From positions 32,001 to 96,000 of the IMG/VR virus record IMGVR_UViG_3300045988_170206: 64,000 bases of DNA; one strand, written 5' to 3'. The first letter of the stretch is position 1; every line of letters begins with the position of its first letter. The position numbers and the translations under genes were made by a program. This document shows, one piece after another, positions 25,921 to 54,550 of the stretch. Under the pieces are notes generated by a model. The model was not told where the DNA came from and ran no database searches. It saw only the letters and a list, made by a program, of their open reading frames with translations. This stretch comes from a virus.

Positions 25921-26618
25921 GCTAGTCCTTCCGTTGAGGCGAGTAAAGCGGTGATGTTGTCCTGTTCTCCCGCTGTTTGTGCGCGCGTAGCGAGGTCGTT
26001 GAGGCCTGCTTCTGTGAGAGCGTCGAGCTTGTTGCCGACGGCCTCGTAAGCGTGCCAAAACCCGTCTGAGCATAGGAGGAATGTGTCGCCACTCTGGTAG
26101 GTGCCGGTGTAGATGTCAGGGGTGTGACCGTCGGCTTTGGGCTTTCCGAGTGCGCGGGTGATGCGGCTGGCGTAGGTGCGGGCGATGTCGGGGGTGATGG
26201 TGACTCCGCGGCGCTTGAAGGCGTTGAGGGCTGAGTGGTCCTCGGTGAGCTGTGTGCCCTCGAGGGTGCCTGCTGGGATCTTGTAGGCGCGGGAGTCGCC
26301 GATTTGGAGGATCCAGTACTGGCCGTCGTAGAGGCGTAGGAGGGTGAGAGTTGTACCTCCTCCCGTGTCGGTGACCTTCTGGTGGGCGGTGGTGACGGCT
26401 TCGATGAGGGTGTCGTCAGTGATGTCTCCGGCCTTGATTGCGTCCATGTAGGTGCGGGCGGCGCTTTGGGAGGCTTGTGCGCCGTTGGCGACTCCGCCCA
26501 TGCCGTCGGCGATGAGTGCGAGGATGCCGGTCTTGCCGTCGGCGGTGAAGGTGGCCCAGGCGTAGGTGTCCTGGTTTTCTTTTCGTTGGTTGCGGTGGGT
26601 GATCGTGTGGACGCTCAT
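25917..26618 (-). CDS. PP2C-family Ser/Thr phosphatase
   Basis: RKENQDTYAW, ADGMGG and CSDGFWH motifs. Confidence 0.85.
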   Translation of the reverse strand: MSVHTITHRNQRKENQDTYAWATFTADGKTGILALIADGMGGVANGAQASQSAARTYMDAIKAGDITDDTLIEAVTTAHQKVTDTGGGTTLTLLRLYDGQYWILQIGDSRAYKIPAGTLEGTQLTEDHSALNAFKRRGVTITPDIARTYASRITRALGKPKADGHTPDIYTGTYQSGDTFLLCSDGFWHAYEAVGNKLDALTEAGLNDLATRAQTAGEQDNITALLASTEGLA

Positions 26619-27740: not shown

Positions 27741-29222
27741 TCACTTTCCGCTGGAGGGGTTTCCGGCGAGGACGCGGAACCAGATCGGATTGGTGGATCG
27801 GTCGTAGGAGGCTCCCCAGATGAGGTAGAGCTCGGAGAGTCGCGTAGAGGAGGTCCAGGACTCGAGAGTCCCAGATTCACCTGGCGCGAGGGTAACGCTG
27901 TTCGTGAGGCCGTACACGGTGCCGGTCCTGGTGTAGGGGTTGCGTGTGGCATCGACGAGGGTGTCGTCGGGGGTGAGTGTGATGGTCTCGGTGCCGAGGT
28001 TGCGGACCTTGAACGTGTAGAAGGCGTACTGCACTTCGCTCGCTTCGACGAAGCCTCGGTTTTGTGCAGACTTTTGGCTCATGGCGCGGAATGCGTCGGG
28101 GCCGGTGAGGAACGCACTGAGGGTAACTTCGATGGGGGTGTCGGTACCGTCGGTGGTTTTGACGACGACGGGCGTGTTCAGACCTGCGGGAGCGTTGAAG
28201 GTGCCATCTCCAACTCGGGGGAGCGCGCTCGTATCAGGCAGGGATCCGTCTTGTCCTGCACTGGTGAGGGCGTGTGCGCCGATCCAGTTGGGCTCGGTGT
28301 AGTAGTTATCCGCGTATTTGCGGCTGGTTTTGGCTTCTTCGGTGTCTTCGTCGCGCGTGGTGGCGGTAGTATGCTCGGGATCGAGAGCGTCTACGGCGAG
28401 TTCGCTGAATGTGTCTTGGAGCTTGTGGAAGCTGTCGGACGCGAACAGGGTGTCATCCATATACACGTCCTCAGCGCTGGAGAGTCGGCAGGAGGAGCCG
28501 AGGCCGGTGCCGGTGCAGTCCATGACGGGAGGGCGGCTGACGGTGGTCGTGGGGAGGTTGGCGGCGTTGGCTGCAATGTAGCTGGCGAACGCATCCGTGA
28601 CTTTACGGCTGAACTCCACGTCGCTGATCGACGTGAGCTTCGCTTTGGCGAGCGCGTCCTTCACGCCGGTCTTGTCGAGGGTGACTGCCCCGTAGTCTAC
28701 GAGCTGGAAGTCCACGTTCTCACCGTTGTTGAGCGTCGAGGGGGCGGTGGTGGGTTTCCAGGTGAAGGGGTTGCGGTGGGGCTGGCCTGTCCAAGTGAGC
28801 TGCCCAGTTTCAGGAAGCTGGTAGGTGACGGTGGCGAGGATGGCTCGCACGGCGTTGGTGCGTGCTTCGTTACCGTTGAGGTAGTCGTACTCCCGCGCCA
28901 CCCAGGACTGCTCGATGACCGAGTTGAGTCCGTCGGTGTCGAAGTCGTGGAGGGCCGTCATGTAGGGCACGAACGTGGAGGTGCCTTTAGCGGCCTCGGG
29001 GAGGCTCTTCGCCGGCGGGACAATGACCCCGAAGTAGGTGCCGATCAGTGCGACGGGCACTAGGGCGATGAGGGAGCGCTTGAGGAGCTTCTTCTTTCCG
29101 CGCTTCTTCTTGGCTGACGTTGCAGGTGTAGCGGGTGACCCCCACGAGTCCCAGGCCTCGCCTTGCGCGGGCACGTTGTTCTGCATGGGGGTGGTGGGGA
29201 TGTTGGTGTCCCAAGAAGCCAT
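27741..29222 (-). CDS. Single-pass membrane protein with a large ectodomain (C-terminal DUF4352-like Ig fold)
   Basis: KKKRGKKK followed by TM LIALVPVALIGTYFGVIV. C-terminal FKVRNLGTETITLTPDD...LAPGESGTL pattern. Confidence 0.7.
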   Translation of the reverse strand: MASWDTNIPTTPMQNNVPAQGEAWDSWGSPATPATSAKKKRGKKKLLKRSLIALVPVALIGTYFGVIVPPAKSLPEAAKGTSTFVPYMTALHDFDTDGLNSVIEQSWVAREYDYLNGNEARTNAVRAILATVTYQLPETGQLTWTGQPHRNPFTWKPTTAPSTLNNGENVDFQLVDYGAVTLDKTGVKDALAKAKLTSISDVEFSRKVTDAFASYIAANAANLPTTTVSRPPVMDCTGTGLGSSCRLSSAEDVYMDDTLFASDSFHKLQDTFSELAVDALDPEHTTATTRDEDTEEAKTSRKYADNYYTEPNWIGAHALTSAGQDGSLPDTSALPRVGDGTFNAPAGLNTPVVVKTTDGTDTPIEVTLSAFLTGPDAFRAMSQKSAQNRGFVEASEVQYAFYTFKVRNLGTETITLTPDDTLVDATRNPYTRTGTVYGLTNSVTLAPGESGTLESWTSSTRLSELYLIWGASYDRSTNPIWFRVLAGNPSSGK

Positions 29223-29231
29223 GTCTTTTCC

Positions 29232-29858
29232 TTACCCGAATATGTTGCTGAAGAAGGTATCTGCGTTCGCCGTGTCTTCCGGCTCTGGTTCCGGCTCTGG
29301 CTCGTCTGCCCTGTGGGGCGATGGAGTGTCGTCGATGCGGGGGGCGAAGTCGTCCTCGTTGTCACCCGTGGGGAACACCCAAGGGCTCACAGCGTTAGAA
29401 CCAGTTGTTTCCACCTGAACCTGTTGGGGTTCTTGGGGTTTTTGCTGGGTTCTGAGCAGTTCTCGGACGAGGGATTCAAGCTCGTCCATACGGTCGTCCT
29501 TCTTGGGCTGTGCCTGTGGGGCCTGAACGACGACCTGCGGTTGTACGGGCGCAACCTGCTCGAAGTAGCTTATCCCCTGCTGTGTGCGCATGGTGAGTGA
29601 GTCAAGCATGAACTGGAGGCGGTCGTTCTCCCGCTGCGCTTCATCCAGGGCTGTTTGGAGCTGAGCGCGCTCGAAGTCTTCCTCGTAGCCGAGCATGACG
29701 TTGACGATGCGTCGCACTTCCTCATTGTCGCGGTAAGCGGTCAGTAGGGTGATGACGAGGGGGGATGCCTGCCGTTGCTGAGCGAACGGGCGGATCACGT
29801 CGTCGTAGATGTCCTGCGGGAGGCCCTTGACGACCAGTGTGTGTTTACTCGATGACAT
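29232..29858 (-). CDS. Hypothetical protein with a ribbon-helix-helix-like N-terminus and a coiled coil (ParR-like adaptor candidate)
   Basis: KHTLVVKGLPQDIYDDVIRPFAQ fits a beta-strand/helix RHH start. The rest is a coiled coil and an acidic tail. Inference only. Confidence 0.65.
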   Translation of the reverse strand: MSSSKHTLVVKGLPQDIYDDVIRPFAQQRQASPLVITLLTAYRDNEEVRRIVNVMLGYEEDFERAQLQTALDEAQRENDRLQFMLDSLTMRTQQGISYFEQVAPVQPQVVVQAPQAQPKKDDRMDELESLVRELLRTQQKPQEPQQVQVETTGSNAVSPWVFPTGDNEDDFAPRIDDTPSPHRADEPEPEPEPEDTANADTFFSNIFG

Positions 29859-31206
29859 CGGTCAGCCTATCTCCCTCGCGGACAACGTTCGTAGCAACTG
29901 ATCTGGCGATGAACTGGATCAACTGCTGCGCCTGCCCAGCTGTTGAGGGTTTGTAGATGAGGGCTCGAGGCTGAGGGTTCAGGCCTCCGAGGTTGATGAG
30001 GGTCGCTCGTAGCGACTGGATGATTCCGTCGATGATGACGGTGGGGAGCTTGTGGGCTGCGAACGCCATGTAGAGGACGCGCGCGACCATGCTGTTGGCG
30101 GGTGGGCCGACGAGGATGATCTGCTTGCCGTCGTGGGCGACCTGTGCGAGGCGAGCTGCCCAGTCCACGAGCAGATAGGAGAGGTCGTTCATGTAGGAGC
30201 GCGCTCCCATGGTGATGAAGCTGACCTGGTTGACACTGGTGTCCGTGTAGGGGACCGGGCCGGTGCCTTTGGTGAGCCATGTGCGCCCATCGGTCACATC
30301 GTTGGTGCCGAAGCGGTAGTCGATGAGGCTGTCCACGTTCAGGTCGATGATGCAGACGGGACCGTTGTAGGCGAGTTCTGCGGCGTACTTCTGGATGAGC
30401 TTGTACGTCGTTTGGACGGCTCCCCCGGTGCCGGGGAAGAGCACGTGTAGGCTCTTGACGACCGTCGGTGAGAGTGTGGCGACCGTCGGCAGGCTCAGCG
30501 TCAGGATGGAGTCTGCGTTGGAGAATGCGTCAAGGCGCGCGAACGGGGATCGCTCAAAAGCTGCGAGCCGTTTGCGGAGTTCCACGTCACTGCCGCCGTG
30601 CATGACCTGCTTTTCGAGTTCGGCCTTTTCTCGGGCGAGGCGCGTCGCGTCGGCTTCGAGCGCGGCAATGCGGTCACTCTCTGACGCTCGAGTGTTCAGG
30701 AGAGCTTCCTGTTCCGCGAGCTTCTGGTTCGCTGCGTCGAGGTCGGCTTGCAGTCGCGCCACGTCGGCATTGGGGGACGTGACGGCAGGCGCGACAGTTG
30801 AGGTGGCCAGTTGGGGAGTCACCGTGTTAGCTCCTTGAGCGGCGGCAAACGTGGCGAGCACCTGCATGAAGGCTGTGGGATCTAGCGGCTGTTCTCCCGT
30901 GGGAGCGTCGAGCTTCGCTCCTCGAGCATTCAGAGCTTCAGCGAGGCGCGCGTCAGTTGAGTAGGGGATGTACTTGTCGGTGCTCACGATGCTGGGTGCG
31001 ATGCGACCACTATCCGCGTACCCGTCAGGGACGATGAAGGCCACCACGTCATTGCGCGTGGCGCTCCTGTGCGACTGGAGCTTGAGGCTGGTGGCTGACA
31101 CTTCCGACAGTTCGACAACATCCTCAGCCCCGTAAATCTGCGCGAAGCCCTCGCGTGCGAGTTTCACCGCGGAGGCGGGGAGGCCGTAGTAGTAGGCCTT
31201 GAACAT
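29845..31206 (-). CDS. Three-part protein: receiver-like N-domain, coiled coil, degenerate MinD/ParA-like C-domain (TadZ/CpaE-like architecture)
   Basis: The C-domain has LFPGTGGAVQTT where a deviant Walker A would sit (no Lys), then VCIIDLNVD and IILVGPP. Central ARLQADLDAANQKLAEQEAL... coiled coil. Confidence 0.6.
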   Translation of the reverse strand: MFKAYYYGLPASAVKLAREGFAQIYGAEDVVELSEVSATSLKLQSHRSATRNDVVAFIVPDGYADSGRIAPSIVSTDKYIPYSTDARLAEALNARGAKLDAPTGEQPLDPTAFMQVLATFAAAQGANTVTPQLATSTVAPAVTSPNADVARLQADLDAANQKLAEQEALLNTRASESDRIAALEADATRLAREKAELEKQVMHGGSDVELRKRLAAFERSPFARLDAFSNADSILTLSLPTVATLSPTVVKSLHVLFPGTGGAVQTTYKLIQKYAAELAYNGPVCIIDLNVDSLIDYRFGTNDVTDGRTWLTKGTGPVPYTDTSVNQVSFITMGARSYMNDLSYLLVDWAARLAQVAHDGKQIILVGPPANSMVARVLYMAFAAHKLPTVIIDGIIQSLRATLINLGGLNPQPRALIYKPSTAGQAQQLIQFIARSVATNVVREGDRLTDVIE

Positions 31207-31307
31207 GCTGGGCTCCTTCCTATGTGGTGGGGCCTCCGCGCCCCTACCTGTTCGACTGGGTGAGCAGGGGGCCAGTGAACCGTGGGGGCGCGGAGGGGCT
31301 TGTGGGA

Positions 31308-32573
31308 TTACTTCTTCGCGTTCTTGTCGGCGAATCGCGCGAAGTTGATGGCACCTTCAATGTTGAGGGTGCGCAGGTTGACGCCCTCCTTGATGGGGAG
31401 GAGTTCGATGTCGGGGGCGAAGGAGCGGACCTGACGTACAACCGACTCAGCGATGGGTTCCATCTCTTCTGCCCTGTCGAGAGAGGGGTCTGTCTGTTCC
31501 GTCTTGATCGCGCCGCCGCCTATGACGAGGAGGTAGGCGAACTCATCGGGCGCGAAGCGGTTGGCTTCGAAGGTGTTTCGCAGGTTGGCCGTGATAGTGC
31601 CTGCAACCTCGTTGCGGGCGGCGTTGACCTGGCGGGACACGTCCTTGCGCTTCACGCCTGAACGGATGGTGCCGGTGAGGACCGCTTCTGTGGCGGCTTC
31701 ACGGGAGAGTGCGCGACCGTGTTCCTGGTGCACGTACTTGGCGACCAGGGAGGCAATGGTGTTGCCGCCAACGGGGTAGGAAGCGGACGCGGACGTAATG
31801 GGGTTGAGGTTCTTGATGAACGTCACGTCGGCAGTGCCGGCCCCGAGGTCGAGGACAATGATCGGCTCGTTTACACAGTCTGCATAGTCGGCGACTGTGC
31901 CCATCGCAGGAGTGAAGACGGTGGCACTGAAGCCTGCCAGACCCTCCGCGAGGACGGACACGTCGCCCACCTTGATCGGGATGCTGACACGCTCAGGAGC
32001 GATGACCTCCACGCTCTTCGAGAGCGTGAAGATCTTCTTGAAGGTCTCTCCCTTTCCGGTCTCGCTGGGCGGGGCGAGGAGAGTCACGTCCCAGGTGATC
32101 TCCAGAGACTCCGGCTTCTTACGCAGGAGCTTCGCAACGAGTTCACGCCCGACGAAGACGGCGTAGTGGAAGCTCCACAGTGTCGTCTCGGACTGTGCCT
32201 TCGTCGCAATGGCAGAACTGGGGCGTGTTGCCGACATGGCGAACTCTCGGTCAGCGAGAGGCCCTGCGGCGTACAGGTGAGTTGGTTCACCAGCTGCGAG
32301 GCCCTGGGGTGCCCGGAAGATGATCGAGCGGAGCTCGTTGGGCTTGCCATTCACCTCGTCGGCGACGTACTGCTCTGGGATTACGTAATCGTCCCCGATG
32401 GCCGCGAAGGCGTTGGGGAGGATCGTGATGGGGCTGGCCTTGCCGTTCACGAGGACAGCAACTCGGGTTTCCGAGTTGCCGAAGTCGATAACCAGGCGCG
32501 CCTGCACCTTGGTCTTGGTCTGCTCACTCACTGCGCTGCCTTTCTGTCGGTTTTTCTGCGCTGTTTGCATCAT
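31308..32573 (-). CDS. Actin-like ATPase of the ParM/Alp (plasmid segregation) type
   Basis: Phosphate-1 LVIDFGNSETRVAV, phosphate-2 IVLDLGAGTADVTFI, adenosine motif LLVIGGGA. Confidence 0.75.
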   Translation of the reverse strand: MMQTAQKNRQKGSAVSEQTKTKVQARLVIDFGNSETRVAVLVNGKASPITILPNAFAAIGDDYVIPEQYVADEVNGKPNELRSIIFRAPQGLAAGEPTHLYAAGPLADREFAMSATRPSSAIATKAQSETTLWSFHYAVFVGRELVAKLLRKKPESLEITWDVTLLAPPSETGKGETFKKIFTLSKSVEVIAPERVSIPIKVGDVSVLAEGLAGFSATVFTPAMGTVADYADCVNEPIIVLDLGAGTADVTFIKNLNPITSASASYPVGGNTIASLVAKYVHQEHGRALSREAATEAVLTGTIRSGVKRKDVSRQVNAARNEVAGTITANLRNTFEANRFAPDEFAYLLVIGGGAIKTEQTDPSLDRAEEMEPIAESVVRQVRSFAPDIELLPIKEGVNLRTLNIEGAINFARFADKNAKK

Positions 32574-32601
32574 TTTATCGGTAAATGGCCTGTCTGTGTG
32601 T

Positions 32602-33441
32602 TTAGGCGCGTCTGTGTCGTTGATTAGCGACGTTCGCTTCGAGAGCTCGGGCGTTGACTGTGGCGTTGCTGAGTCCCGGCATGAGGAGTTCTCGGGTGAG
32701 GGTTCCTTTCTCCCACCCTTCTTGGATGCGGGCTATCTGAGTGCCGGAGTACTGGAAGCTACCGTCCTCGTTCTGGGAGGAGAGCTGCTGCATGAGGCCG
32801 GGAACCGTGTCGGGGATGCGTGTGGCGTACATGTCGGCGAGTGCTTCGAGGGTGTCGGCCTGGCTGTTCCTCGTGAGGGGCAGGTCGGCGAGGATTGGTG
32901 CCCGGCTGATCTGGTGGAGTTGTTCCTCGTTGAGGCCTGCGCGCGCGAGGCTGGGGCGCGCGAGGCTGAGGAGGGAGCGTAGGGCCGTGTCGGAGGAGAT
33001 GCCCGCGTTGAGGTAGGGCTTGATGTCCATGCCTTGTGCGAGGGCGCTCTCGTAGAGGGAGAGCTGGGTTTCGCGCATGTACCGGAAGTCGCATCCTGTG
33101 GTGGGGTATCCGCGCGCTGTCCATTCGAGTACTGCTGCGAGGACGGGAACAGTGAGGCCCATCTTGAGGAAGGGCCTGAAGCTGTTGAGGTTGCCCTGGT
33201 TGTGGGCGTGGTTGCGGACGATACGCAGGATGGGGGCGGGGAGTACGAAGAATGGCTCGGGGATGGTTTCGAGCATGGCGAGCCGGATCTGGTGGAGGTC
33301 GTCGGGATCTCGGTCGATGTAGGGCATGATCGGGGTGCCGTCGAAGATGGCGCTGCGTACCTCGTCGAGGATGTCGAGGGGGTAGCCGGTGAGGATTGCT
33401 CGGTAGTTCTCGAGCGTGAGTTCTTTGCCTGCATACTTCAC
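32602..33441 (-). CDS. Hypothetical protein (279 aa)
   Basis: GTG start (VKYAGKELTL) forms a GTGA overlap with the upstream stop. The Pro/Arg-rich track extension to 33687 looks non-coding. Confidence 0.65.
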   Translation of the reverse strand: MKYAGKELTLENYRAILTGYPLDILDEVRSAIFDGTPIMPYIDRDPDDLHQIRLAMLETIPEPFFVLPAPILRIVRNHAHNQGNLNSFRPFLKMGLTVPVLAAVLEWTARGYPTTGCDFRYMRETQLSLYESALAQGMDIKPYLNAGISSDTALRSLLSLARPSLARAGLNEEQLHQISRAPILADLPLTRNSQADTLEALADMYATRIPDTVPGLMQQLSSQNEDGSFQYSGTQIARIQEGWEKGTLTRELLMPGLSNATVNARALEANVANQRHRRA

Positions 33442-34088
33442 TGGTCGGTGCCTTTCGTCGTGGTGGTGAGCGCTGCGCGTCGCTGGGCTGTGGCGTGCAC
33501 GAGTTCGTCGAGCACATGAGGGTAGAGGCTGCACATCCAGGAGCGGTTGGTGCTCCACCCGTCGGTGGGATGGTGGAGTGCTGTGGGGATGCGGGCGGCG
33601 TTGAGGCTTTCGAGGTAGGAGGTGACTGCGGCGTGAGGGCTGAGGTCTTTGTAGTGGAGGCGCGCTGTGGGTGGCATGTTGGCCCACGTGTAGGAGCCGT
33701 CGTGCTGCTGCTGGAGTTGCTGTGCGGTTACGTCGAGGATGAGTGCGTCGTAGGCCAGGCCTCGGGTGGCTTCAGCGGCGCGGGTGCCATTGCTCGAGCG
33801 GGGGCTGGTGATGGCGACGGCGAGGACATGTCCGTCGTCGTAGTGGAGGGCGTATTCGTCCTTCTTGATGGTGCGGGCCCCTTCTCGGTTGTAGATGGGC
33901 AGGGGGATGGTGGCGAGGCGCGCGAGAGTGTGCAGGCGAGCGAAAGACGGGTGGGCGCACAGGTCGATGCGGGCCGTTCGTTCGACGGTTGCTCCGGCGC
34001 GTCGGCACGTGGAGTAGGCGACGTGGCCGCGGTGTGGGGCGTGGACCGTCGTGTATGGGGTGGAGCTGATGAGCTCTCGGAGGTTCAT
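33438..34088 (-). CDS. Hypothetical protein (216 aa)
   Basis: ORF coupled at both ends within the operon. Confidence 0.7.
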   Translation of the reverse strand: MNLRELISSTPYTTVHAPHRGHVAYSTCRRAGATVERTARIDLCAHPSFARLHTLARLATIPLPIYNREGARTIKKDEYALHYDDGHVLAVAITSPRSSNGTRAAEATRGLAYDALILDVTAQQLQQQHDGSYTWANMPPTARLHYKDLSPHAAVTSYLESLNAARIPTALHHPTDGWSTNRSWMCSLYPHVLDELVHATAQRRAALTTTTKGTDQ

Positions 34089-35110
34089 TCGTCGTTGTCC
34101 TCAGTGGCTAGGTGTCGTGTCGCTTCGAGCTGTACTCGTTGCGCGAGGTCGGGTGGGGGGAGTTCGCCGTGCGTGTCCCAGGCTGGCGGTTGTCCGTTGA
34201 GGGCTTCGGCGTTCTCGAGCTTGAAGCGTTCACGGTCGAAGTCGATGCCGCGCTGGGAGAGCGCCCAGTAGGCGAGGTCTACCTCGGACAGGATAGTGGG
34301 CGTGAGCTGTCCATCGCGGGTGACGACTGTGGGCACGGTGTTGGTCTGGTCGATGGGTTCGATCATGTACGGCTCTTGGTAGCCGAGGTAGCCGACGGCG
34401 CAGTCGGCGAGATGGTAGGAGGCATCGTGGGGTTGGGGCGGGGCGATGAGGTCTGTGTACTTCCACCTGTCGGCGAGGGGGATGTTGCACAGGTCGGTGA
34501 TGGAGTCTTCGATGGTGCCGTTGATCGGCCAGGCCTGTAGGTCCAGCTGGTCGCTGGTGGCGGGGTCGTTGCGGACAACGGCGAGGGTGCAGCCAGTGAG
34601 GCGCGGGTAGGAGCCTGCCGTTGAGGCGGTGGAGAGGCGCGAGTGGACGACGACGACGCTGCCGGTGGTGAACCAGGCGGCGGCGCGTTTCTCTTCGACG
34701 GTGGCCGGGCGGAACGTGTCGAGCTCGCGGGTGACTCCCTGCCAGAGCACATAGTCGATGTCCCTGTAGGTCGCGTTCGTCGTGTCGATGTCGATGTCGG
34801 GGTTGTTGAGCTGCCAGAGGAGGAGCGCGAGCGGCTGGAAGATGCGTCGGTTCTTCACGTGCGCGACCGGGGGCGTGATGAGCGCTCGCGGGGTGGGGGT
34901 GGTGCGGGCCCAGTGGGCGAGGCCGCTCATGTAGGCGGTGACAGTCTGTGCGTCGGTGAGCTTCGGCTCCGTGGAGACGGTGACGGTCGTCGTGTCTCCC
35001 TCACGGGTGAGGGTGGCGCGCTTGTGGGGGCGCTTCTCAGTGTGGAGTAGGGTCTCCCACTGCTGTTTGTAGGGGAGTGCTTGTCGGGCTTGGGTCTGCG
35101 GGTTCATCAT
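34085..35110 (-). CDS. Hypothetical protein (341 aa)
   Basis: ORF coupled at both ends within the operon. Confidence 0.7.
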   Translation of the reverse strand: MMNPQTQARQALPYKQQWETLLHTEKRPHKRATLTREGDTTTVTVSTEPKLTDAQTVTAYMSGLAHWARTTPTPRALITPPVAHVKNRRIFQPLALLLWQLNNPDIDIDTTNATYRDIDYVLWQGVTRELDTFRPATVEEKRAAAWFTTGSVVVVHSRLSTASTAGSYPRLTGCTLAVVRNDPATSDQLDLQAWPINGTIEDSITDLCNIPLADRWKYTDLIAPPQPHDASYHLADCAVGYLGYQEPYMIEPIDQTNTVPTVVTRDGQLTPTILSEVDLAYWALSQRGIDFDRERFKLENAEALNGQPPAWDTHGELPPPDLAQRVQLEATRHLATEDNDE

Positions 35111-35766
35111 CGGCGGGCCTCATTTCGGAGCTTCTGGGCAAACATGTACTGGTCGTTCGAGTTGCCGCCGGTGCCGGTGATGAGTGCTGCGACGTAGGCG
35201 AGAGTTCCCGCGTCGAGGGCGTGGAGTTCGTCGTGGATGCGAGCCTTCGAGAACTGCATGACGTAGGCGAGGGTCTGCTGGAGCAGCTCGATGTCTGGCG
35301 AGGCCGTGGAAGTCGTGCCATTGGTCGCTGCTTTGAGTTGGGCGATGAACTCGGAGTCGAAGTAGTCCTCGAGGCTCCCGGTGCCGGTGTCGCGGGCGAC
35401 GGCGCGGTCGAGGGTGCGGGCGGCGGCTGCGAGAGAATCGGGGGTGTCGGTGGTGATGAGGGTGAGGAAGTTCTTCCCGAGGCGAGCTTCGACTTCGCGC
35501 AGTCCTTTTTCGACTTCGATGCGCACGGTTGTCTCTTTGCGGTTGAGGTGCTTGCCGATCTCCTCGTAGCTCATGCCTTTATGGGCGAGCGCCCCATCGG
35601 GAGTGCCGGGGATACGGAGCCGGATTGCCTGCGGGTAGAGGCGGGTTTGCCGGTAGGACGCTCCCCTGATGTAGACGACGGTGCGGTTGATGAGGGTTTG
35701 CGCGTCGGCGGACAGGGTATGCGCGTTTGAGACAAGCCTCGTTAGTTGCGTGTAGAACCTCGCCAC
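35107..35766 (-). CDS. Transcription regulator with a sigma-70 region-4 / LuxR-type HTH
   Basis: GMSYEEIGKHLNRKETTVRIEVEKGLREVEARL. GTG start at 35766 lies 5 nt after a perfect AAGGAG. First gene downstream of the iteron array. Confidence 0.6.
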   Translation of the reverse strand: MARFYTQLTRLVSNAHTLSADAQTLINRTVVYIRGASYRQTRLYPQAIRLRIPGTPDGALAHKGMSYEEIGKHLNRKETTVRIEVEKGLREVEARLGKNFLTLITTDTPDSLAAAARTLDRAVARDTGTGSLEDYFDSEFIAQLKAATNGTTSTASPDIELLQQTLAYVMQFSKARIHDELHALDAGTLAYVAALITGTGGNSNDQYMFAQKLRNEARR

Positions 35767-36187
35767 GATGCTCTCCTTCTGACCACTGATTGAGGGGGTG
35801 ATCGTTGATGTGGGAAAAACCATCGTTTTTTGTCCACGCGCTTTTGCTGGCGGCGTTTTGGGCCTCCTGGAGGGGTTCACCGCCGGTTTGGAGGTGCGCG
35901 TGGACTCAAAATGATGTCTGAAACCATCATTTCACGATCAACATTTTTCATCACTTTGAGCGGTCGGAGGGTCGCAGATTGAGATGCGGGTCGGGCGTTG
36001 GGGACGCGGTAGAGGTGGCTAGAGGGGGTTGTTGGCGCGGCGACGCGAGAGTCAGGAATGGGGTGTTTTATCGGGGTTTGTCCAGTTGTGCCACTGCCGG
36101 GTGCTTGTCGGTGGGATGTAATCCCCGCCTGTGTGGACCTATAGTTGCGCCGTGTATATCCTCGCTTCTCTCGGTGGGAACTGGCTC

Positions 36188-36673
36188 TAGTGCTACCTAG
36201 ATGTCCGCTAGTACACCCCTGAACTATGTCTAGTGCAACCATGATCTAGGCATGGTTAACCTGGATGTCGATAGGTTCAACCTATATCTTCTATATTGCG
36301 TGTGGACCTAGCCTCTGGTAGTACCAAGAACTAGCTCTAGTTACACCTGTATCTACGCAGGGTTAACTTGGATGTCGATAGGGTTAACCTGTATCTCGAC
36401 AGGTACAACCACTATCTATGTTTTCTCGTGCTGATCTAGGCCTAGGTACAACCTCTATCTGCGCAGGTATAACCTCTATCGCTACAGGTACAACCGTTAT
36501 CTCGGTCAGGTGCAACCTGTATCTTCGATATTGCGTGTGGACCTAGGGGCTAGTAGTACCAAGAACCAGGTAGAGGCAACCCGGATGTCGGGAGGGTCAA
36601 CCTAGATGTTGGCGGCGGTGTACCTGGATGTGGGTCTAGTGCTACGCGGATGTGGCGCTAGGTGCACTTCCTT
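36188..36673. repeat. Iteron array: about 18 same-orientation copies of (T/C)AGGTNCAACCNNNATCT at about 21-bp periodicity, containing a nested pair of 54-bp direct repeats
   Basis: Examples: AGGTACAACCACTATCT, AGGTACAACCTCTATCT, AGGTATAACCTCTATCG, AGGTACAACCGTTATCT, AGGTGCAACCTGTATCT, GGTTAACCTGGATGTC. Long repeats at 36278-36331 and 36513-36566 (about 46/54 identical). Confidence 0.85.
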
Positions 36674-36693
36674 CCCTGTGTGAGCATAAGGAG

Positions 36694-36728
36694 CGGCCCC
36701 TCGCTCGTGGTTATGAGCCGAGGGGCCG
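36694..36728 (-). terminator. Hairpin terminating the ATPase/J-domain transcription unit
   Basis: CGGCCCCTCG (36694-36703) pairs with CGAGGGGCCG (36719-36728), 15-nt loop, 20 nt downstream of the 36749 stop. Confidence 0.5.
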
Positions 36729-36748
36729 ACTTGTTGGAGTGGAAGGTT

Positions 36749-37066
36749 CTAGCGTGAGCACTCCGTGGCGTGGGAGTAGATCTTTGCGAGGTCGTCGGGT
36801 GCGACGTTGGCGAGCGAGTGGGTGTCTTGGATCTGGGAGATGGCTACGGGGTCGAGGTCGCTCCATGATTTCTCAACCATGCACTGTGTGGTGGTGGCCG
36901 TGTACTCGCCGAGGCCAACGATGCCCTCGGGCACGTAGGAGCTGGTCCACGGGTGCCAGAGGGTCACGAGGTAGATGACGGCGGCTGCTAGGAGGATGGA
37001 GAGGATCGACTGGACGATGCCGCGGGTTTTGTGCGCCATGCGGAATGGCGTGAAGATGCTGAACAC
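36749..37066 (-). CDS. Small single-pass membrane protein (105 aa)
   Basis: TM IVQSILSILLAAAVIYLVTLW. Follows the J-domain gene. Confidence 0.65.
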   Translation of the reverse strand: MFSIFTPFRMAHKTRGIVQSILSILLAAAVIYLVTLWHPWTSSYVPEGIVGLGEYTATTTQCMVEKSWSDLDPVAISQIQDTHSLANVAPDDLAKIYSHATECSR

Positions 37067-37078
37067 GGCTGGGGCCTT

Positions 37079-37318
37079 TCAGTTGTTGCGCACGGTGTAG
37101 CGCAGTGGGTGGCGGTCGTGGATGAGGACGGGGCGGGCGAGTGCTTCCTTGAGGCGCTGGTGTGCGTTGTTGAGTTCTTGGAAGGCGTGGGGGTCGCCGC
37201 CCCTGTCGGGGTGGAGGGTGCGAGCTCGGGCGCGGAACGCTCGGTTGAGGTCGGCGAGGGTCGCGGTGGAGGTCACGCCGAGGAGCTTGAGGTCGTGGGG
37301 GTTAGGGCGGGGGGTCAT
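37079..37318 (-). CDS. Stand-alone J-domain protein (79 aa)
   Basis: LLGVTSTATLADLNRAFRARARTLHPDRGGDPHAFQELNNAHQRL with the HPD tripeptide. ATGA overlap with the giant ATPase gene. Confidence 0.85.
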   Translation of the reverse strand: MTPRPNPHDLKLLGVTSTATLADLNRAFRARARTLHPDRGGDPHAFQELNNAHQRLKEALARPVLIHDRHPLRYTVRNN

Positions 37319-40300
37319 GCTTGTTCCTTGTTCTTCATCTGCTGGCGGTAGTTGGCGATGCCGCCGCCGATCATGGAGGCGAGGCTGCGCACGCCCCTGG
37401 ATGCGACGTTGGCGGCTCCCATGGCGAGGGTGCCGGTGAGGCCTGCGGTGATGCGCCAGGTCTTGCTCAGGCCTCCGAGGTCGGTGCGCTGCCAGGTCTT
37501 GCGCGTGTAGTCGCTGGCGTTGCGTTGGCCTGTGGAGAGGATGTGCGTGGCGGCGGACATGGCGCGCTGCATTTCGTCGTAGCGTCGCACGCCTGATGGT
37601 GTGCCGTTGATGGTGCTCCAGGTCTGGCGGTCGAACTCTTCGCCTTCGATGCTGATGTGCTGGAGGAGCGGCATGTCAGCGAAGAGCTGGGAGATTGACG
37701 AGTCGGGCTTGTACCCGAGGTCGGGGCAGACGTAGGAGCAATAGAAGTCCCAGGAGTCGAAGGACAGTCGGCGCAGGTTGGGCATCTCCCGTAGGACGGT
37801 CCAGTTCATGATGGGCGCGATGTTGGAGGAGCGGATCGCGTCGGTCATGTACGGGGGGATGACTTGGTTGTTGCGCCAGTCGTCGGTTACCTGGGTGCGG
37901 TAGGCGACTCCGTTCATGATGATGGTTTCGCCGACGACTCCGACGCGCTTGACGCGAGCCCAGGTGCCGGCCCATTCGTTCATGTCGGCGTAGAGCGCTG
38001 CTTGCACTGCGTCGGGGGTCATCTCTGTGGGGGTGATGGTGCGGGGGGTGCTGGTGTTGAACTCGTAGCCGCCGCCGGTGGTGGGTCGCACGGGGCTGGT
38101 GGAGTAGTCCCATGTGGGGGCGGGCGCGTCGGGTTCGTCGGGCATGGCCATGCGGTCGGCGTTGGGGTCGGTGGTGTCGTCCATGTCGGGGACGGTGGGG
38201 GCCGGGGGCATGGGTGGCGGTGGGGGGACAGGTGGGATTGGCGCAGTGGGTGTGGCGACGGTCGGGGGTTGGGGGATCGCTGTGTGCGCGTCTTGGGTGT
38301 CGCTGGCGGCGCGCTCGGCGGCTGGCTTATCGTCGTCGCCGGTGAGGCCGCTCATGTCCCACTCTTCTGCGTCGCTGCCCGCGAGCGCGAAGCCGCTGTT
38401 GGTGTCTTCTGACTCGAAGGCCTGGGGGTAGACGTGACGGAATAGGGTGACGGACTGGGGATCGTACTCGTAGCCCTGGAAGACGTTGTAGATGTCCTCG
38501 ACGGAGGCGATCCACTGCGGGCGCAGGTCGGACACCCATTCTTGCCAGGTGCCCTCGTAGCCGAGTTTGCGGACGGTGAGGTTCGCTGCGTCGGAGAGCT
38601 TCTGGAGTGTGGCCGCGGCTTGCTCGCGGGTGACTCCGGCTTTCGCGAGGTAGCCCTCAAAGCCGAGGGAGGGGTCGAGCTCGCCGGTGTCGGTGGACAC
38701 GTCGCGTCGGACGGCTTCTACGTCCACGCCTGCACTCTTCATGTAGGAGATGGAGTTGTTCCAGCAGTAGCCGTCTTCACTGCCGTCGGCGAACAGGAGG
38801 CCGGGGCGCAGGTAGGTGGCGGTGCGCGCGACGGATTCGTCGCCGTTCATGATCTTGTGGATGTTATCGCCGCTGAATCCGGGGAGGTAGGCGAAGCATC
38901 GCATGGTGGAGGACAGCTTGTCGGAGGCGTAGGAGCCGGGGGTGAGCTGGTTCAGGTAGTTGCGTCCAGGGTGATGGCCGATGAGCACGTCGGTCTTGCC
39001 GATGGAGGCGTAGCTGTAGATGAAGTTGTCAGCCTCCTTGAAGGGGATCGAGATGTTCTTCGTGCTGGCGTTGAGCGGTTTGCCTGCGGGGAAGAACTGG
39101 CCGATGTCAGTGACGGGGTTGACGGGATCCTGGCCGATCATGAAAACGCGGGAGCGTTTGGCTTCGGCGTTGTTGAAGCCTGCGTTGCGTAGCTGGGATA
39201 GTTTCTCGAAGGAGCGGCGCATCATGAAGTACATGCTGGTAAACCACAGTTCGCCGGGGTTCACTTCCTGCTTGGGCTTCTTCTTGTCGTCGAAGTCGGA
39301 CTGCTCCCACGCGACCCACTCGGACTCGTAGTTCGTGTAGCACATGTGGCCTTGCATGTTGGACTGGAAGAACGTCTGGATCTGCTGGTTCGTGTTACTG
39401 ATTTCATCGAACACGATGCAAATACCGTCTTTTCCGCCTAGTTGTTCAGCGATTTCGGGGCTGATTGTGCGGGCTGCGAGCATTCCGAGCGCGAGGATCA
39501 TGTATCGCAGGTAGACGACGGTGCCGAGGGTGCCCGTGTAGCCGGGGGCCCACGCGAGGTTGTTCTTGTTCAGGTACTCGGGGATGTGGGCGCGGGCTTC
39601 GAGCTCGGCGACCTTTGCTGCCGTGTACTGCATGAACATGTCCGTACCCTCTTCGGGGTTGCTGGCGATGTTCGAGCCGTTGATGACGAAAGCGTCGGGG
39701 TTGATCGACAGGAGAAGAGAGGCCATGTCGGGCTTGTTGTCGCCCAGGCCCGGCGCGATGCCGGCGATGAGGTGCATTGCAAGGATCGTCTGCGTGGTCA
39801 GGCCCTTACCGGATCGGGAGCCCGCGAAGATGCCGTGGCTGGTGTGATCGTTGAACTGCCTGATCTCCTTGCCGGTGGTCACTACGTCATCATCGAGGCC
39901 GATGCCGAGGATCATGTTGCTGGCGCTGGGCTTGCGTCCCTGGCGTTGCATCGCGTCGAGGATCTTGCCTGCCCACACGGGTGAGGCGTTGGCGAGTACC
40001 TTGTCCATGTCGTGCCGGAACTCCCAGAAGATCCCCTCGTTGATGGGGTCGTAGTTCTGGGCTGTTGTGCCGCCTGCGAAGCCGAGGGCTTCGACGATGG
40101 CGCGCTCGACGATGTTCTCGCTGAAGCCTTCGTAGGGGGTGAGGACTCGGACCTTGACCTTGACGGGGATGTTGCTCGGGGAGTTGTCGTAGGCGGAGAC
40201 GAGGACGCACGTCGTCATGGCCTTGTAGATGCTCTCGAGCGCGCCGACGACCTTGGTCATCATGGAGGGGTCGTGGTAGGCGAGGCCGTTGTCGGCTTCG

Positions 40301-42526: not shown

Positions 42527-42761
42527 GAGTGGTTCCTTCCTATCCCCACGGTGGGGGCTTGGGTTTGGTCTTCTGGGTTACGAGTATCCATCGTGGGGAG
42601 CGTCATGAGTGTAGCGGCGCACCCAAGGGTGGACATGTGCCCATCATGCCACACAAACTCAGACGTGCACGAACTGGACAGGCCATTCGCAGCGTAAATG
42701 TGCGAGATGCCTAGACGTTCTGTGCTGTTAGGCGCAGATATGTTGCCTCAGAGGTGAGGGG

Positions 42762-42861
42762 GTAGTCCAAGTTTTGGATGACGTTCACCACCCAAGCAGG
42801 TCACTTTTTCGGGGGGGGGTAGTCCAAGTTTGAGACGACCCCGTAGTCCAAGTTCTGGACG
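42762..42861 (+). promoter_or_regulatory. Three direct copies of GTAGTCCAAGTT(N)(T/G)(G/A)GA(C/T)G in the divergent hub (candidate operator or promoter element)
   Basis: Copies at 42762-42780, 42819-42837 and 42843-42861. A G9 run at 42811-42819 abuts copy 2. Confidence 0.5.
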
Positions 42862-43058
42862 TAAACGTATATAGAAACCATTGAAGATAAAGAACTACCC
42901 CCTCTAGTCCCCCAAGCCGTTCACGCGAGGCTGTCCAAAGCGCATGGCTGGTTGAGCAGGCGCGCGCTTCGCGCACGCGAGCGAGAGACACACGTAGTTG
43001 AATTGCACACAAAGGGAGGTGTGTGTAGACTGACGATCACCAGAAAGGAAGGAGCAAC

Positions 43059-43502: not shown

Positions 43503-44138
43503 ATGTCTAGCTTCGAAGAGTGCAACGCGCAGCTCGCAGCACCCAAGCGCACGGGGGAAGATAGCCCCCTGTACGGTCTGGGAGCTGTGTCCCACCCGGC
43601 CATCGCAGTCATCCATTTCGACCCGCTGCTGGAGCACAAGCTCACGCGCAAAGAGAGGGCCTTCATGGTCTGGTTCTTCACGCGCTGGAACGATCCCTAC
43701 GTTGAGTACGACGTTGAGGGGATCATGAAGCTGACAAACATGAAGCGCGATGAAGTGCACATGACTCTCTACAACCTGTGCGCGCGCGACATCATCCGCA
43801 TGAAGGCCATGCAGCGGAAGGATGACGAGACAAAGGTTGCGGTCTTCCTGTACTTCGAGCCCTCCCACCTTTTCGTGCCCGAAGCTGTGAACCTGGCTGG
43901 CTGCTTCAATGGGTGTGTCCACTCGTTCTCCGAGTGGGTTGACCCCGCACGACCAGTCACCCTCGAAGAGATCGAAGCGTCACTGCCTACCTACGAGTGG
44001 ATCGATCCGCGCAACATGAAGTGGCTTCAAGCCCAGCGCGAGAAGGGGAGCAACCAGACCCGAACGCAGAAACGTCTTGCTTTCGAGGCTCAGGCCAAGA
44101 AGGACGAAGCCGGGGCGGAAACCCGGACGCAGAAGTAA
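43503..44138 (+). CDS. Winged-helix (MarR-like) protein, paralog 1
   Basis: LTRKERAFMVWFFTRW...GIMKLTNMKRDEVHMTLYNLCARDIIRM..VAVFLYF aligns with the N-domain of the next gene. Confidence 0.6.
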   Translation: MSSFEECNAQLAAPKRTGEDSPLYGLGAVSHPAIAVIHFDPLLEHKLTRKERAFMVWFFTRWNDPYVEYDVEGIMKLTNMKRDEVHMTLYNLCARDIIRMKAMQRKDDETKVAVFLYFEPSHLFVPEAVNLAGCFNGCVHSFSEWVDPARPVTLEEIEASLPTYEWIDPRNMKWLQAQREKGSNQTRTQKRLAFEAQAKKDEAGAETRTQK

Positions 44139-44143
44139 AAGCA

Positions 44144-44173
44144 AGAGGGGGAACCCCTTGAGGCTCCCCCTCT
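44144..44173 (+). terminator. Short hairpin after the 43503-44138 gene
   Basis: AGAGGGGGA (44144-44152) pairs with TCCCCCTCT (44165-44173), 12-nt loop. Confidence 0.35.
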
Positions 44174-44214
44174 CTCATAGAAAGATAGCTATATTGTATC
44201 AGCTTTTTGACGGA

Positions 44215-45642
44215 ATGCACGTGTCTGCACTCCACGCTGCCGTCAACTTCCGCAAGCACCTCAAGGTGGACCTGAGTCGCAGGGAAGTTCTGACACTCAT
44301 GGCGCTGTTCACCTTCTGGCAGTGCAAGATCATCAGCCCCTCCTACAACCTCCTCCTCGAGCGGTGTGTTGGCGCAAAGCGCTCCACGATGTTCACCGCC
44401 ATGAAGTCCCTCGAGGACCGAGGCCTCCTCATTCGACGCTCGTTCCTGGATCGCAAGGACGGGTCGCGCCACGTCGTGTTCTTCCTGGACCTCCCTGGGA
44501 TCTTCACCGACGAATGCTGCGCGCAGCTCGACTCCGATCCCAAGTCGCCGATCACGACCCGTCACACCATCGAAGTGGGGCGAACTGCCAGCACTGAGGA
44601 AATCCTCGCCATGGTCACGTTCGCTGACGTGTCCCAGTGGCAGGAAATCGACTGCAAGCTGACACGTAGGAAGCTGCCACTAGGTAACTTCGACGACCTA
44701 AGCGGCTTCCTCCTGCCCTGCCCGGACAACTTTCCTGTGCACGAAGAGGAAGAGCCAAAGCCGGAGCTGTGCGTCGCAGTCAGCGACAACCAAGGCGATC
44801 TCTTCGACATGCTGCACGAAGCGAAGACACAGGAAACCAGCAACAAGGCCGCGGCAACGCATGGCACGGAAGACCAAGGCGCATATGGCACGTTGTGGCC
44901 TACTGCCGCCACCATCCCTGGCGGCTCAGTGTGGACCCCTGCCGACGTGGAGGACACGTCCACGGTGCCCGCTACTCCAGCAGCGGGAGAGAGCGTCCAG
45001 GAGCGCGCTGAGCGCATCATCCGCGACCATCCTGGCGACGACATGATCGATGCTGAGATCATCGACGTGGAGATCGTCGAAGACGAAACCCCCTCGGACG
45101 CGCTGATCGACGTTCCCGCGTCCCAGGAGCTCGCCATCGCCACCCCTGCGGTGCCCGTGAAGGCCAAGAAGCAGACCGGCTACACCGATGACTTTGAGAA
45201 CTTCTGGCGCACCTACCCGCGCCGCATCGAGAAGAAGTCCGCCTTCAAGGCATGGAAGACTGCGCTCAAGAGCGGAGCAACCGCCGACGAGATCACCGCA
45301 GGCGCAGCCCGCTACGCCAAGTACCGCGCAGGCGAACCCGAGCGCTTCACAAAGCACCCCTCGACCTGGCTCAACCAGGGATGCTGGGAGGACGAGTACT
45401 CGACCGCCGGCATCGGCTACGGATACAACGGCGGCAACGGCACTGGCCTCGTTGCTCGCACACCAGAGGAGGCCGAATACCTCCGCCAGCTCGACAACTC
45501 CTGCTCGGAGATGTTCTACCGCAGCCTCGGCTTCAACAGCGCTGAGGAATACGTTGAGTACCAGCGAGGAATCGCCGAACTCAACGCCCGAGAAGCCGAA
45601 GCTGCATACGCCGAAGCCGCAGCCCGACGCATCGCTTTCTGA
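44215..45642 (+). CDS. Winged-helix paralog 2 fused to an acidic linker and a C-terminal FxxFWxxYP...WLNxxCW module (candidate replication initiator or replisome organiser)
   Basis: LSRREVLTLMALFTFW...STMFTAMKSLEDRGLLIRR..HVVFFL. C-terminus DDFENFWRTYPRRIEKKSAFKAWKTAL...HPSTWLNQGCWEDEY. Start after the hairpin. The track extension from 44077 is rejected. Confidence 0.5.
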   Translation: MHVSALHAAVNFRKHLKVDLSRREVLTLMALFTFWQCKIISPSYNLLLERCVGAKRSTMFTAMKSLEDRGLLIRRSFLDRKDGSRHVVFFLDLPGIFTDECCAQLDSDPKSPITTRHTIEVGRTASTEEILAMVTFADVSQWQEIDCKLTRRKLPLGNFDDLSGFLLPCPDNFPVHEEEEPKPELCVAVSDNQGDLFDMLHEAKTQETSNKAAATHGTEDQGAYGTLWPTAATIPGGSVWTPADVEDTSTVPATPAAGESVQERAERIIRDHPGDDMIDAEIIDVEIVEDETPSDALIDVPASQELAIATPAVPVKAKKQTGYTDDFENFWRTYPRRIEKKSAFKAWKTALKSGATADEITAGAARYAKYRAGEPERFTKHPSTWLNQGCWEDEYSTAGIGYGYNGGNGTGLVARTPEEAEYLRQLDNSCSEMFYRSLGFNSAEEYVEYQRGIAELNAREAEAAYAEAAARRIAF

Positions 45643-49808: not shown

Positions 49809-49827
49809 GTAGTCCAACATGGGGACG
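49809..49827 (+). promoter_or_regulatory. Additional copy of the GTAGTCCAA motif
   Basis: GTAGTCCAACATGGGGACG in the 49724-50277 intergenic region. Confidence 0.4.
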
Positions 49828-52419: not shown

Positions 52420-52438
52420 GTAGTCCAATATGGGATAT
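52420..52438 (+). promoter_or_regulatory. GTAGTCCAA motif copy lying in the spacer of a putative promoter
   Basis: TTGCAG (52415-52420), 17 nt containing GTAGTCCAATATGGGA, then TAGGCT (52438-52443), 24 nt before the 52468 ATG, with a GAAAGGAG RBS in between. Confidence 0.4.
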
Positions 52439-54539: not shown

Positions 54540-54550
54540 GAGAGTCCGTC

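Follow-up and report, generated by a model that had tools for sequence, protein, structure and literature searches.

A phased array of three site types upstream of an actin-type operon as a candidate composite centromere of an uncultivated mobile element

What does a long run of short, same-orientation repeats do in a gap that holds no gene, directly ahead of an operon that encodes an actin-like ATPase? The question is raised by a 64,000-nucleotide stretch of DNA (IMG/VR virus record IMGVR_UViG_3300045988_170206, positions 32,001 to 96,000; the whole stretch is referred to here as the window, and positions are those of the window unless a related locus, named L plus a number, is given). Its 982-bp gap (35767 to 36748) carries an iteron array and is followed by eight minus-strand genes (27741 to 35766). 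An earlier note on this DNA had described about 18 iterons at 36188 to 36673 and had proposed that they form a centromere for the ParM-like system and/or a replication origin. In our reading, the array is a composite, centromere-like site at which the segrosome of an actin-type (type II-like, ParM/Alp) DNA segregation module assembles; we give this reading a probability of about 0.5. The centromere proposal came out as the best-supported reading, resting on context and comparative evidence, and the origin proposal as a weaker one; the two are not mutually exclusive.

The array is a lattice of 23 slots, all on one strand, whose starts run from 36188 to 36658. The slots are spaced solely by 21 or 22 bp (mean, 21.36 bp). 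Along the lattice, the slots follow the order A5-B-C-A4-B'-A4-B-C-A5. The A-type iterons occupy 17 or 18 slots, in agreement with the earlier count, and share the logo nnG(T/G)nnnACCnnnAT(C/G)T, with the sub-forms AGGTRCAACCnnnATCT, AGGGTTAACCTGGATGT, and TAGTGCTACCnnGATGT. With leave-one-out scoring by position weight matrix, 15 of the 18 A slots reached at least 13 bits, and slot 23 is only a half site. Strong A-type iterons are confined to the array locus: 17 matches of at least 12 bits lie in the array versus 2 in the remaining ~127 kb (both strands of the window). The B-type word, GCGTGTGGAC, fills slots 6 and 17, with a degenerate version in slot 12, and the C-type word, GGTAGTACCAAGAAC (TrGTAGTACCAAGAAC; n = 2), fills slots 7 and 18.

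The identity autocorrelation of the array peaks at a lag of 107 bp (0.44), followed by lags of 128, 85, and 21 bp (maximum over 500 shuffles, 0.34). Tandem Repeats Finder alone detected just two short pieces of the array. A 54-bp repeat pair reported previously is real and slightly longer than stated, extending to 62 nt (87% identity between the copies). The three site types, the 107-bp higher-order period, and a variation in length by 107-bp units (see below) go beyond the earlier note. The G+C content of the array (50%) is lower than that of the window (62%). The reported size of the noncoding gap (~980 bp) was also correct: the array has stops in all six frames, and its substitutions among relatives lack 3-periodicity. 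No Rfam match for the array was found at an E value of ≤1. Its RNA fold z-scores versus shuffled sequences were modest (−1.9 and −2.8, the latter for the plus strand) and are explained by small AGGTnnnACCT palindromes. On the basis of these results, we rejected the array as a coding sequence or a structured RNA.

To assess conservation, we aligned 1,102 bp around the gap from 13 distinct relatives, which fall into four sub-lineages and are 79 to 92% identical in the array. The alignment contained no insertion or deletion, though array identity falls to ~80%. When the alignment was folded onto the lattice, the information content of the iteron positions was inversely correlated with the variability between relatives (Spearman rho, −0.77; P = 4e-5, a value that overstates the evidence because the relatives are not independent samples). 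The conserved iteron positions are G3, A8C9C10, A14T15, and T17. The B core GCGTGTGGA is invariant in the 13 relatives, and the C word is likewise invariant. The comparison indicates that the iteron core positions and the phasing are under purifying selection. Co-variation of the recognition residues of the candidate adaptor or helix-turn-helix (HTH) proteins with iteron variants in the family was uninformative, since the candidate DNA-contacting segments are nearly invariant.

Among wider relatives, array length varies from ~15 to 39 slots, and the changes come in whole units of 107 or 321 bp. Four near-identical 107-bp units (C-A-A-A-B) stand in tandem in L049, compared with three in L052 and two in L056, and a 321-bp duplication in L045 brings the array to ~39 slots (~830 bp). 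The shortest array (~15 slots) is that of L051. Given that length changes by whole units, the true repeat unit is five slots (i.e., 107 bp, or ~10 helical turns). By this comparison, the array evolves like a small satellite, via unequal exchange.

Two features of parC-type loci are present: a repeat array situated ahead of the operon start (35766) and an actin-fold ParM/Alp NTPase encoded within that operon. The NTPase (gene 5) matched Pfam PF21522 (2.7e-13) and phrog_691, "partition protein" (7e-17). Its match to the NCBIfam ParM model NF010498 (1.4e-7) was below the family cutoff, and tblastn aligned it to annotated ParM/StbA at 24% identity over 90%. In relatives, the start codon lies 4 to 24 codons further downstream, giving proteins of 397 to 417 amino acids (aa). 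The seventh gene encodes a protein with a conserved N-terminal segment of ~57 residues (an extended segment and two helices), a coiled coil, and an acidic disordered tail ending in DTFFSNIFG. Both the N-terminal domain and the D(T/S)FF C terminus are conserved in distant lineages. This layout is that of ParR-type adaptors, by analogy with which we regard the protein as a candidate only.

The association of array and operon was then followed in distant lineages. A full HMMER scan recovered six remote homologues of the HTH protein encoded by the first operon gene (28 to 32% identity). L023, L024, and L025 (~56% G+C) retain the whole eight-gene module at 22 to 53% protein identity, and L019, L020, and L021 keep it in part; outside L023 to L025, this partial module occurs in lineages of 32 to 54% G+C, again with proteins that are 22 to 53% identical. 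In L021 (32% G+C), a unit encoding a big protein, a DnaJ protein, and a small protein is followed by a gap and then by the HTH gene. A UvrD-type helicase is encoded within the module in L019 and L020.

L023, L022, and L020 have phased arrays of their own (20- to 22-bp period) upstream of the HTH gene; thus, lineages whose proteins are only ~30% identical have arrays of similar period made of different words. The L023 array consists of nine (T/C)CTTGGT(T/C)AT sites at a spacing of 19 to 22 bp. L022 has 6.7 copies of the 20-bp repeat CCCTTGAAGTCTGCCTAACA, ~105 bp from the start codon, and a second cluster. L020 has four 22-bp repeats after a terminator, and its main iteron, AAGGGTTCGA (25 matches, 0.9 expected), makes up both an array of >660 bp and a seven-copy cluster immediately ahead of the actin sub-operon. 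Copies of a second L020 site type, CTTTCCCTA, are scattered through both arrays and also form a cluster at the HTH promoter, a placement that mirrors that of the B-type 10-mers of the window (in the array, at 36131 to 36140, and in the promoter/leader). The large L020 array lies 2.7 kb from the HTH gene, with three genes and a terminator between them; these genes (L020 741 to 3016) are tandem paralogues that belong to no family (277, 245, and 230 aa). In L023, where the array and the homologue of the 105-aa gene that lies upstream in the window are set apart by ~5.6 kb of other genes, the array remains with the operon. These comparisons link the array to the actin operon across diverged lineages. 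The L023 iteron is the same word as the C site of the window read on the operon strand (TTCTTGGTACT), which suggests that C is probably the ancestral form of the iteron and A a lineage-specific derivative.

If the array acts as a centromere, the ~18 A-type iterons, lying on one helix face two turns apart, would be bound cooperatively by an operon-encoded adaptor. The most likely adaptor is the 208-aa product of gene 7, with a small N-terminal domain that would bind DNA and an acidic tail that ends in a conserved FF motif; the alternative is the sigma-r4-like HTH protein. The resulting nucleoprotein filament would display many tails and capture the ends of actin-like filaments, which would push or position the copies of the element. 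The B sites, which occur once per 107-bp (~10-turn) unit and as an inverted pair in the promoter/leader, would be the targets of a second protein, which is probably the HTH regulator. Its binding at both array and promoter would tie operon expression to array occupancy. We infer both the identities of these binders and the segregation function.

Among characterized parC sites, that of pSK41 measures 80 bp (8 × 10 bp, also counted as 4 × 20 bp) and that of R1 consists of 10 repeats of 11 bp. The array resembles these type II sites in having same-orientation tandem repeats upstream of an operon with an actin-fold NTPase and a small tailed adaptor (here, the candidate), and it shares with pSK41 parC a period of ~20 bp. 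In type II systems generally, parC consists of tandem repeats placed ahead of its operon (PMC5016525). We therefore read the array, by analogy, as a site that would work like a type II or Alp centromere but that is set apart from described centromeres by four features: its length, the interleaving of three site types, the 107-bp higher-order unit, and the eight-gene module. Several of these differences weigh against the centromere reading. With 490 bp (to ~830 bp in relatives) versus 80 to 160 bp, the array is three to six times longer than characterized parC sites. Unlike parC, which overlaps the promoter, it stays at least 250 bp away from the putative promoter, on the upstream side. Within the eight-gene operon, the actin gene takes fifth place, 3.6 kb from the array, and a 453-aa gene separates it from that of the adaptor candidate. 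Furthermore, the candidate had no ribbon-helix-helix (RHH) or ParR family match by Pfam, NCBIfam, PDB sequence, or profile-versus-PDB searches; hhalign gave a probability of 1.5% against pSK41 ParR, and a single-sequence AlphaFold2 model was of too low confidence for a fold search. The former label "RHH-like" is plausible in terms of architecture but was confirmed by no search. In L019 and L021, the DNA upstream of the HTH gene gave no convincing sign of an array. The genes of unassigned function and the UvrD-type helicase of L019 and L020 suggest that the module may serve replication or DNA transport instead of, or besides, partition. A 21-bp spacing in one orientation is, moreover, also a hallmark of Rep iterons. 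Outside this family, we saw neither a comparable array nor a comparable module in the more distant actin relatives L014 and L016 or at the ParM/StbA locus of Bacillus thuringiensis.

Also close is the AlpAC-alpS system of prophage CGP3 of Corynebacterium glutamicum, likewise an actinobacterial mobile element, in which 24 alpS repeats upstream of the actin-like alpAC operon are bound by the co-transcribed adaptor AlpA, which also binds the filament (PMC4446434); the comparison covered architecture. In view of these 24 repeats, the earlier statement that the copy number is high for either a centromere or an origin needs softening. In contrast to the array, alpS is a short degenerate motif (TTAAnnG) rather than a phased iteron of 21 bp, its operon comprises two genes, and the role of AlpAC is to assist viral replication, not classical partition. 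The iterons of theta plasmids (P1 oriR/incA, F oriS/incC, and RK2 oriV) are similar as 17- to 22-bp direct repeats at about two-turn spacing, with lower G+C content and DnaA-box-like words nearby, and those of P1 and F adjoin a partition operon. Here, however, no rep gene is adjacent and the repeats of the Rep-like gene are of another kind, the iterons are two to four times more numerous, and the array tracks the actin operon in relatives. Many direct repeats in blocks, with centromere and operator functions combined, are also found in tubC (type III; pBtoxis and pBsph) and parS1-3 of pSM19035, but there the motors are TubZ and the ParA-like delta, the binders are the winged-HTH TubR and the RHH protein omega, and the repeat units measure 7 to 12 bp. 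To our knowledge, a higher-order unit such as the 107-bp one has not been described for either.

Between the array and the first operon gene, which has a GTG start at 35766 preceded by an AAGGAG Shine-Dalgarno sequence, lies an almost invariant block (35807 to 35990; 10% variable columns versus ~30% in adjoining noncoding DNA). Its subregion from 35901 to 35960 (35% G+C) is the second most AT-rich 60-mer in the whole window. It contains a putative −35 element, TTGATC (35937 to 35942), with a leader hairpin predicted to come after it. Two B-like 10-mers in inverted orientation (35832 to 35841 and 35896 to 35905) form a stable hairpin in minus-strand RNA, and the whole block, folded as minus-strand RNA, reached −72.8 kcal/mol (z, −4.4), far better than shuffled sequences. 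In relatives, two substitutions preserve the 10-bp stem only via G-U pairs, which are possible in the minus-strand RNA and not in its complement. The block may thus be a structured 5′ leader of the operon. It had no Rfam match, and consensus scans for sigma-70 promoters and terminators performed at chance level. The A-type iterons stop ~250 bp from the predicted position of the promoter, and the promoter/leader carries only B-like sites.

The likeliest rival is an iteron-type origin or a copy-number control ("inc," handcuffing) array, in which an initiator would bind the 21-bp iterons, the B sites would be DnaA boxes, the AT-rich 60-mer would be the unwinding element, and the operon would be a replication/segregation module. 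Direct repeats of ~21 bp at two-turn spacing are typical of Rep iterons (e.g., P1, F, RK2, and R6K), and both the reduced G+C content of the array and the AT-rich 60-mer fit an origin. The consensus of the high-G+C DnaA box is TTGTCCACA, which the B-like words approach (TTGTCCACG at 35829, 8/9; TGTGGACCT, 7/9; TGTGGATAT in relatives); this resemblance is weak because ~2.6 chance matches of at least 7/9 are expected in the gap. We also down-weighted the B sites as DnaA boxes because the second site type differs between lineages (GCGTGTGGAC in the window, CACGTGTTTATCC in L049, and CTTTCCCTA in L020), which argues against a box for the host protein. Further points for an origin are the UvrD-like helicase in the same operon in L019 and L020 and the requirement of AlpAC for efficient replication of CGP3 (PMC4446434). 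Yet the sole Rep-like gene in the window (44077 to 45642; phrog_270, 2.7e-32) lies on the other arm at a distance of 7.4 kb, where its upstream region has its own three repeats (GGGGGTAGTCCAAGTTTnGGAyGAC) and an AT-rich patch, and no strong A-type iteron lies near it. For the proteins at 43503 to 45642, which the earlier note had labeled winged-HTH, the only match found was to phage replication-initiator/DnaD-like proteins. The repeats there belong to a motif family, GTAGTCCAAG, with nine matches in the window at ≤1 mismatch (2.3 expected; 0 of 100 shuffles), of which three tandem copies and the AT-rich patch lie between a glutaredoxin operon and the Rep-like operon (42758 to 42906). The array segment TAGTAGTACCAAGAAC had been said to resemble these repeats (42762 to 42852). 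The resemblance needs a 1-nt indel and alone is not significant, but it gains some support from L023, whose array region contains a near-identical word (TAGTCCACGTTTTGAGACG; L023 9676 to 9712). This occurrence in the L023 array region of a motif almost identical to the Rep-operon promoter-region repeats (TAGTCCA[A/C]GTTT(T)GAGACG) also counts in favor of an origin. On the minus strand, the B sites (CTAGGTCCACACGC) share the 5′ half of GTAGTCCAAG. The family could be either Rep iterons or a promoter/operator element. Against an origin, the L023 array co-segregates with the actin operon and not with the upstream genes, no Rep homologue was found within the L023-lineage loci, and the AT-rich block coincides with the expected operon promoter. 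Over positions 1 to 64000, the GC skew of the plus strand changes with the direction of the genes: it is ~+0.2 in regions of minus-strand genes and negative in regions of plus-strand genes, and it flips at ~43 kb (coding strands in either arm are rich in C and A). It is therefore useless for placing an origin. Taken together, we consider this explanation unlikely.

A purely transcriptional role, in which the array would be a multi-site operator or enhancer-like platform on which the sigma-r4-like HTH protein or the gene 7 protein would oligomerize and so repress or activate the operon, without any part in DNA movement, appears quite doubtful. It would suit an array upstream of an operon whose first gene encodes a predicted DNA-binding regulator, the recurrence of B-type 10-mers at the promoter/leader, and the 20-bp repeats of L022 that lie so near the start codon. 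Known centromere-binding proteins are also autorepressors (PMC5016525), so that an operator function would be expected in any case. However, at least 17 phased sites over 490 bp (to ~830 bp in L045), at least 250 bp from the putative promoter, are far beyond what autoregulation needs. The free gain and loss of 107-bp units (15 to 39 slots) without loss of the element fits a dosage-tolerant scaffold better than a tuned operator, and the large L020 array stands 2.7 kb from the HTH gene, beyond three genes and a terminator. Another kind of mobile-element site (a pac/cos site with terminase-binding repeats, a conjugative clt/oriT-like locus, or a repeat-derived RNA) seems highly improbable. The listing of the contigs as viral in IMG/VR would suit it, as would the short direct repeats of actinobacterial clt loci and some pac sites and the somewhat better-than-shuffled fold of the plus strand (z, −2.8). 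Against it stand a window in which no terminase, portal, capsid, relaxase, or TraB-like gene was found, the lack of Rfam matches, and fold scores that the palindromes explain; linkage to an actin operon across lineages would also be unexpected for pac or clt.

Returning to the centromere reading, a bolder version of it, which we hold to be rather improbable, would be a modular "mini-kinetochore." Each 107-bp unit would comprise three or four adaptor sites and one second-protein site, two or three element proteins would co-assemble in register, and the number of units would be set by unequal recombination. TAG(G)TCCA(A/C) sites would link the complex to the replication-gene promoter/origin region at 42.8 kb, coupling segregation, expression, and replication, and the module proteins of 341, 216, 279, 453, and 493 aa would represent new parts of the segrosome.

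If the centromere reading is true, the array would be a bacterial centromere with a satellite-like higher-order repeat of five phased slots and three site types, with totals of ~15 to 39 slots among natural variants, attached to an unusually large and conserved actin-type segregation module. The carrier elements are abundant in human-associated metagenomes. Natural length variants and sister lineages with other iteron words would provide a specificity panel for the co-evolution of centromere proteins and sites, and the same panel could address the number of sites required by a type II-like system. The analysis also flags five uncharacterized proteins as constant companions of a ParM-like actin. 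The coordinates of the array, the gap, and the operon are given in Table 1.

Table 1. Positions of the features of the array, the surrounding gap, and the eight-gene operon in the window
Feature	Position	Strand	Remarks
Iteron lattice, 23 slots	36188..36680	+	Consensus strand; neighboring operon on −
Best-preserved run of four A-type iterons, slots 13 to 16	36444..36524	+	AGGT(A/G)(C/T)AACCnnnATC(T/G)
B-type site, slot 6	36294..36314	+	TATTGCGTGTGGACCTAG
B-type site, slot 17	36529..36549	+	TATTGCGTGTGGACCTAG
Degenerate B-type site, slot 12	36422..36442	+	TTTCTCGTGCTGATC; relatives have TTTCACGTGTGGAC or TTCCACGTGTTTATC
C-type site, slot 7	36316..36336	+	Operon-strand reading, TTCTTGGTACTAC
C-type site, slot 18	36551..36571	+	
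62-nt repeat, copy 1	36273..36334	+	A, B, and C slots
62-nt repeat, copy 2	36508..36569	+	A, B, and C slots
Extra B-like site	36131..36140	+	TGTGTGGACC; conserved in relatives; 48 bp before lattice
Almost invariant block, putative promoter/leader	35807..35990	−	Alignment, folding
Terminator-like stem-loop without U-tract	36694..36728	−	Ends upstream 1526-aa/DnaJ/105-aa transcription unit; −27.9 kcal/mol; z, −4.1
Gene 1, sigma-70 region-4-like HTH protein, 219 aa	35107..35766	−	Candidate binder of B sites and/or iterons
Gene 2, 341 aa	34085..35110	−	No family; kept in all lineages (24 to 31% identity)
Gene 3, 216 aa	33438..34088	−	No family
Gene 4, 279 aa	32602..33441	−	No family; 53% identical to L023-lineage counterpart
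Gene 5, actin-fold ParM/Alp-type ATPase, 421-aa open reading frame	31308..32573	−	
Gene 6, 453 aa	29845..31206	−	No family; adjoins actin gene in all lineages
Gene 7, 208 aa	29232..29858	−	ParR-like architecture; candidate centromere adaptor
Gene 8, 493 aa	27741..29222	−	No family; 50% identical to L023-lineage counterpart

The stem-loop at the far end of the gap, which the earlier note had called a terminator hairpin, is strong but lacks a U-tract. Family scans (Pfam, PHROGs, and NCBIfam) of the module proteins recognized only the actin, a weak sigma-r4, and a DnaJ domain; five module proteins (341, 216, 279, 453, and 493 aa) had no match in these three collections. The Pfam sigma-r4 matches of the gene 1 protein were weak, and it had no PDB sequence match. 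Its AlphaFold2 model (predicted local distance difference test score, 80) had no significant Foldseek match, just local similarity to sigma region 4.

We read the carrier of the array as an uncultivated extrachromosomal element of ~135 to 146 kb, that is, a mobile element of ~140 kb. For the protein encoded by the first operon gene, metagenomic contigs yielded 54 clusters of close homologues (≥86% identity). The longest of these contigs repeatedly measured 135 to 146 kb, and the element was found as contigs of 97 to 146 kb across many metagenomes (L026 to L069). It was absent from the 185,579 species-representative genomes of GTDB (two scans), and blastn of positions 35000 to 38500 against phage and plasmid collections (INPHARED and PLSDB) gave no match. 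We found no description of the element in the literature. One actin homologue is named "MAG: ParM/StbA [Schaalia sp.]" at NCBI, and the host is probably the oral actinobacterium Schaalia; given the empty GTDB scans, this assignment leans on that one label of a metagenome-assembled genome.

Minus-strand genes extend up to ~42.5 kb of the window, and plus-strand genes start from 43.06 kb. IMG/VR files contigs of the element as viral genomes, in contrast to a window in which no capsid, portal, terminase, relaxase, or TraB-like genes were found; the element could be a plasmid or a phage-plasmid. The window encodes a SpaA-type pilin, an Ig-like adhesin, an NlpC/P60 protein, and a lysozyme. A 604-aa protein (60750 to 62564) has a weak ParB N-terminal-like region and an HNH nuclease domain, and a ParA-type ATPase was not seen in the window. 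Single copies of GTAGTCCAAG lie at 49809 to 49818 and 52420 to 52429, just upstream of two plus-strand genes.

In relatives, the genes that come right after the module encode an FHA protein, a PP2C phosphatase, and a Ser/Thr kinase (L002 18066 to 20717), and the kinase gene is also present in the window (24208 to 26073), which suggests that phospho-regulation may be linked to the module. IS605-family TnpB (Cas12f-like) genes occur inside or beside the module at four loci (L003 12195 to 14077, L006 12202 to 14078, L004 2360 to 3667, and L024 7038 to 8162); in L003 and L006, the TnpB gene is paired with a resolvase-family gene and inserted between operon genes 3 and 4. Two paralogous DUF7448/phrog_2131 proteins are encoded on the plus arm (46895 to 47959 and 53876 to 55651), the former of which is 58 to 64% identical to the product of a gene adjoining the module in the L023/L024 lineage.

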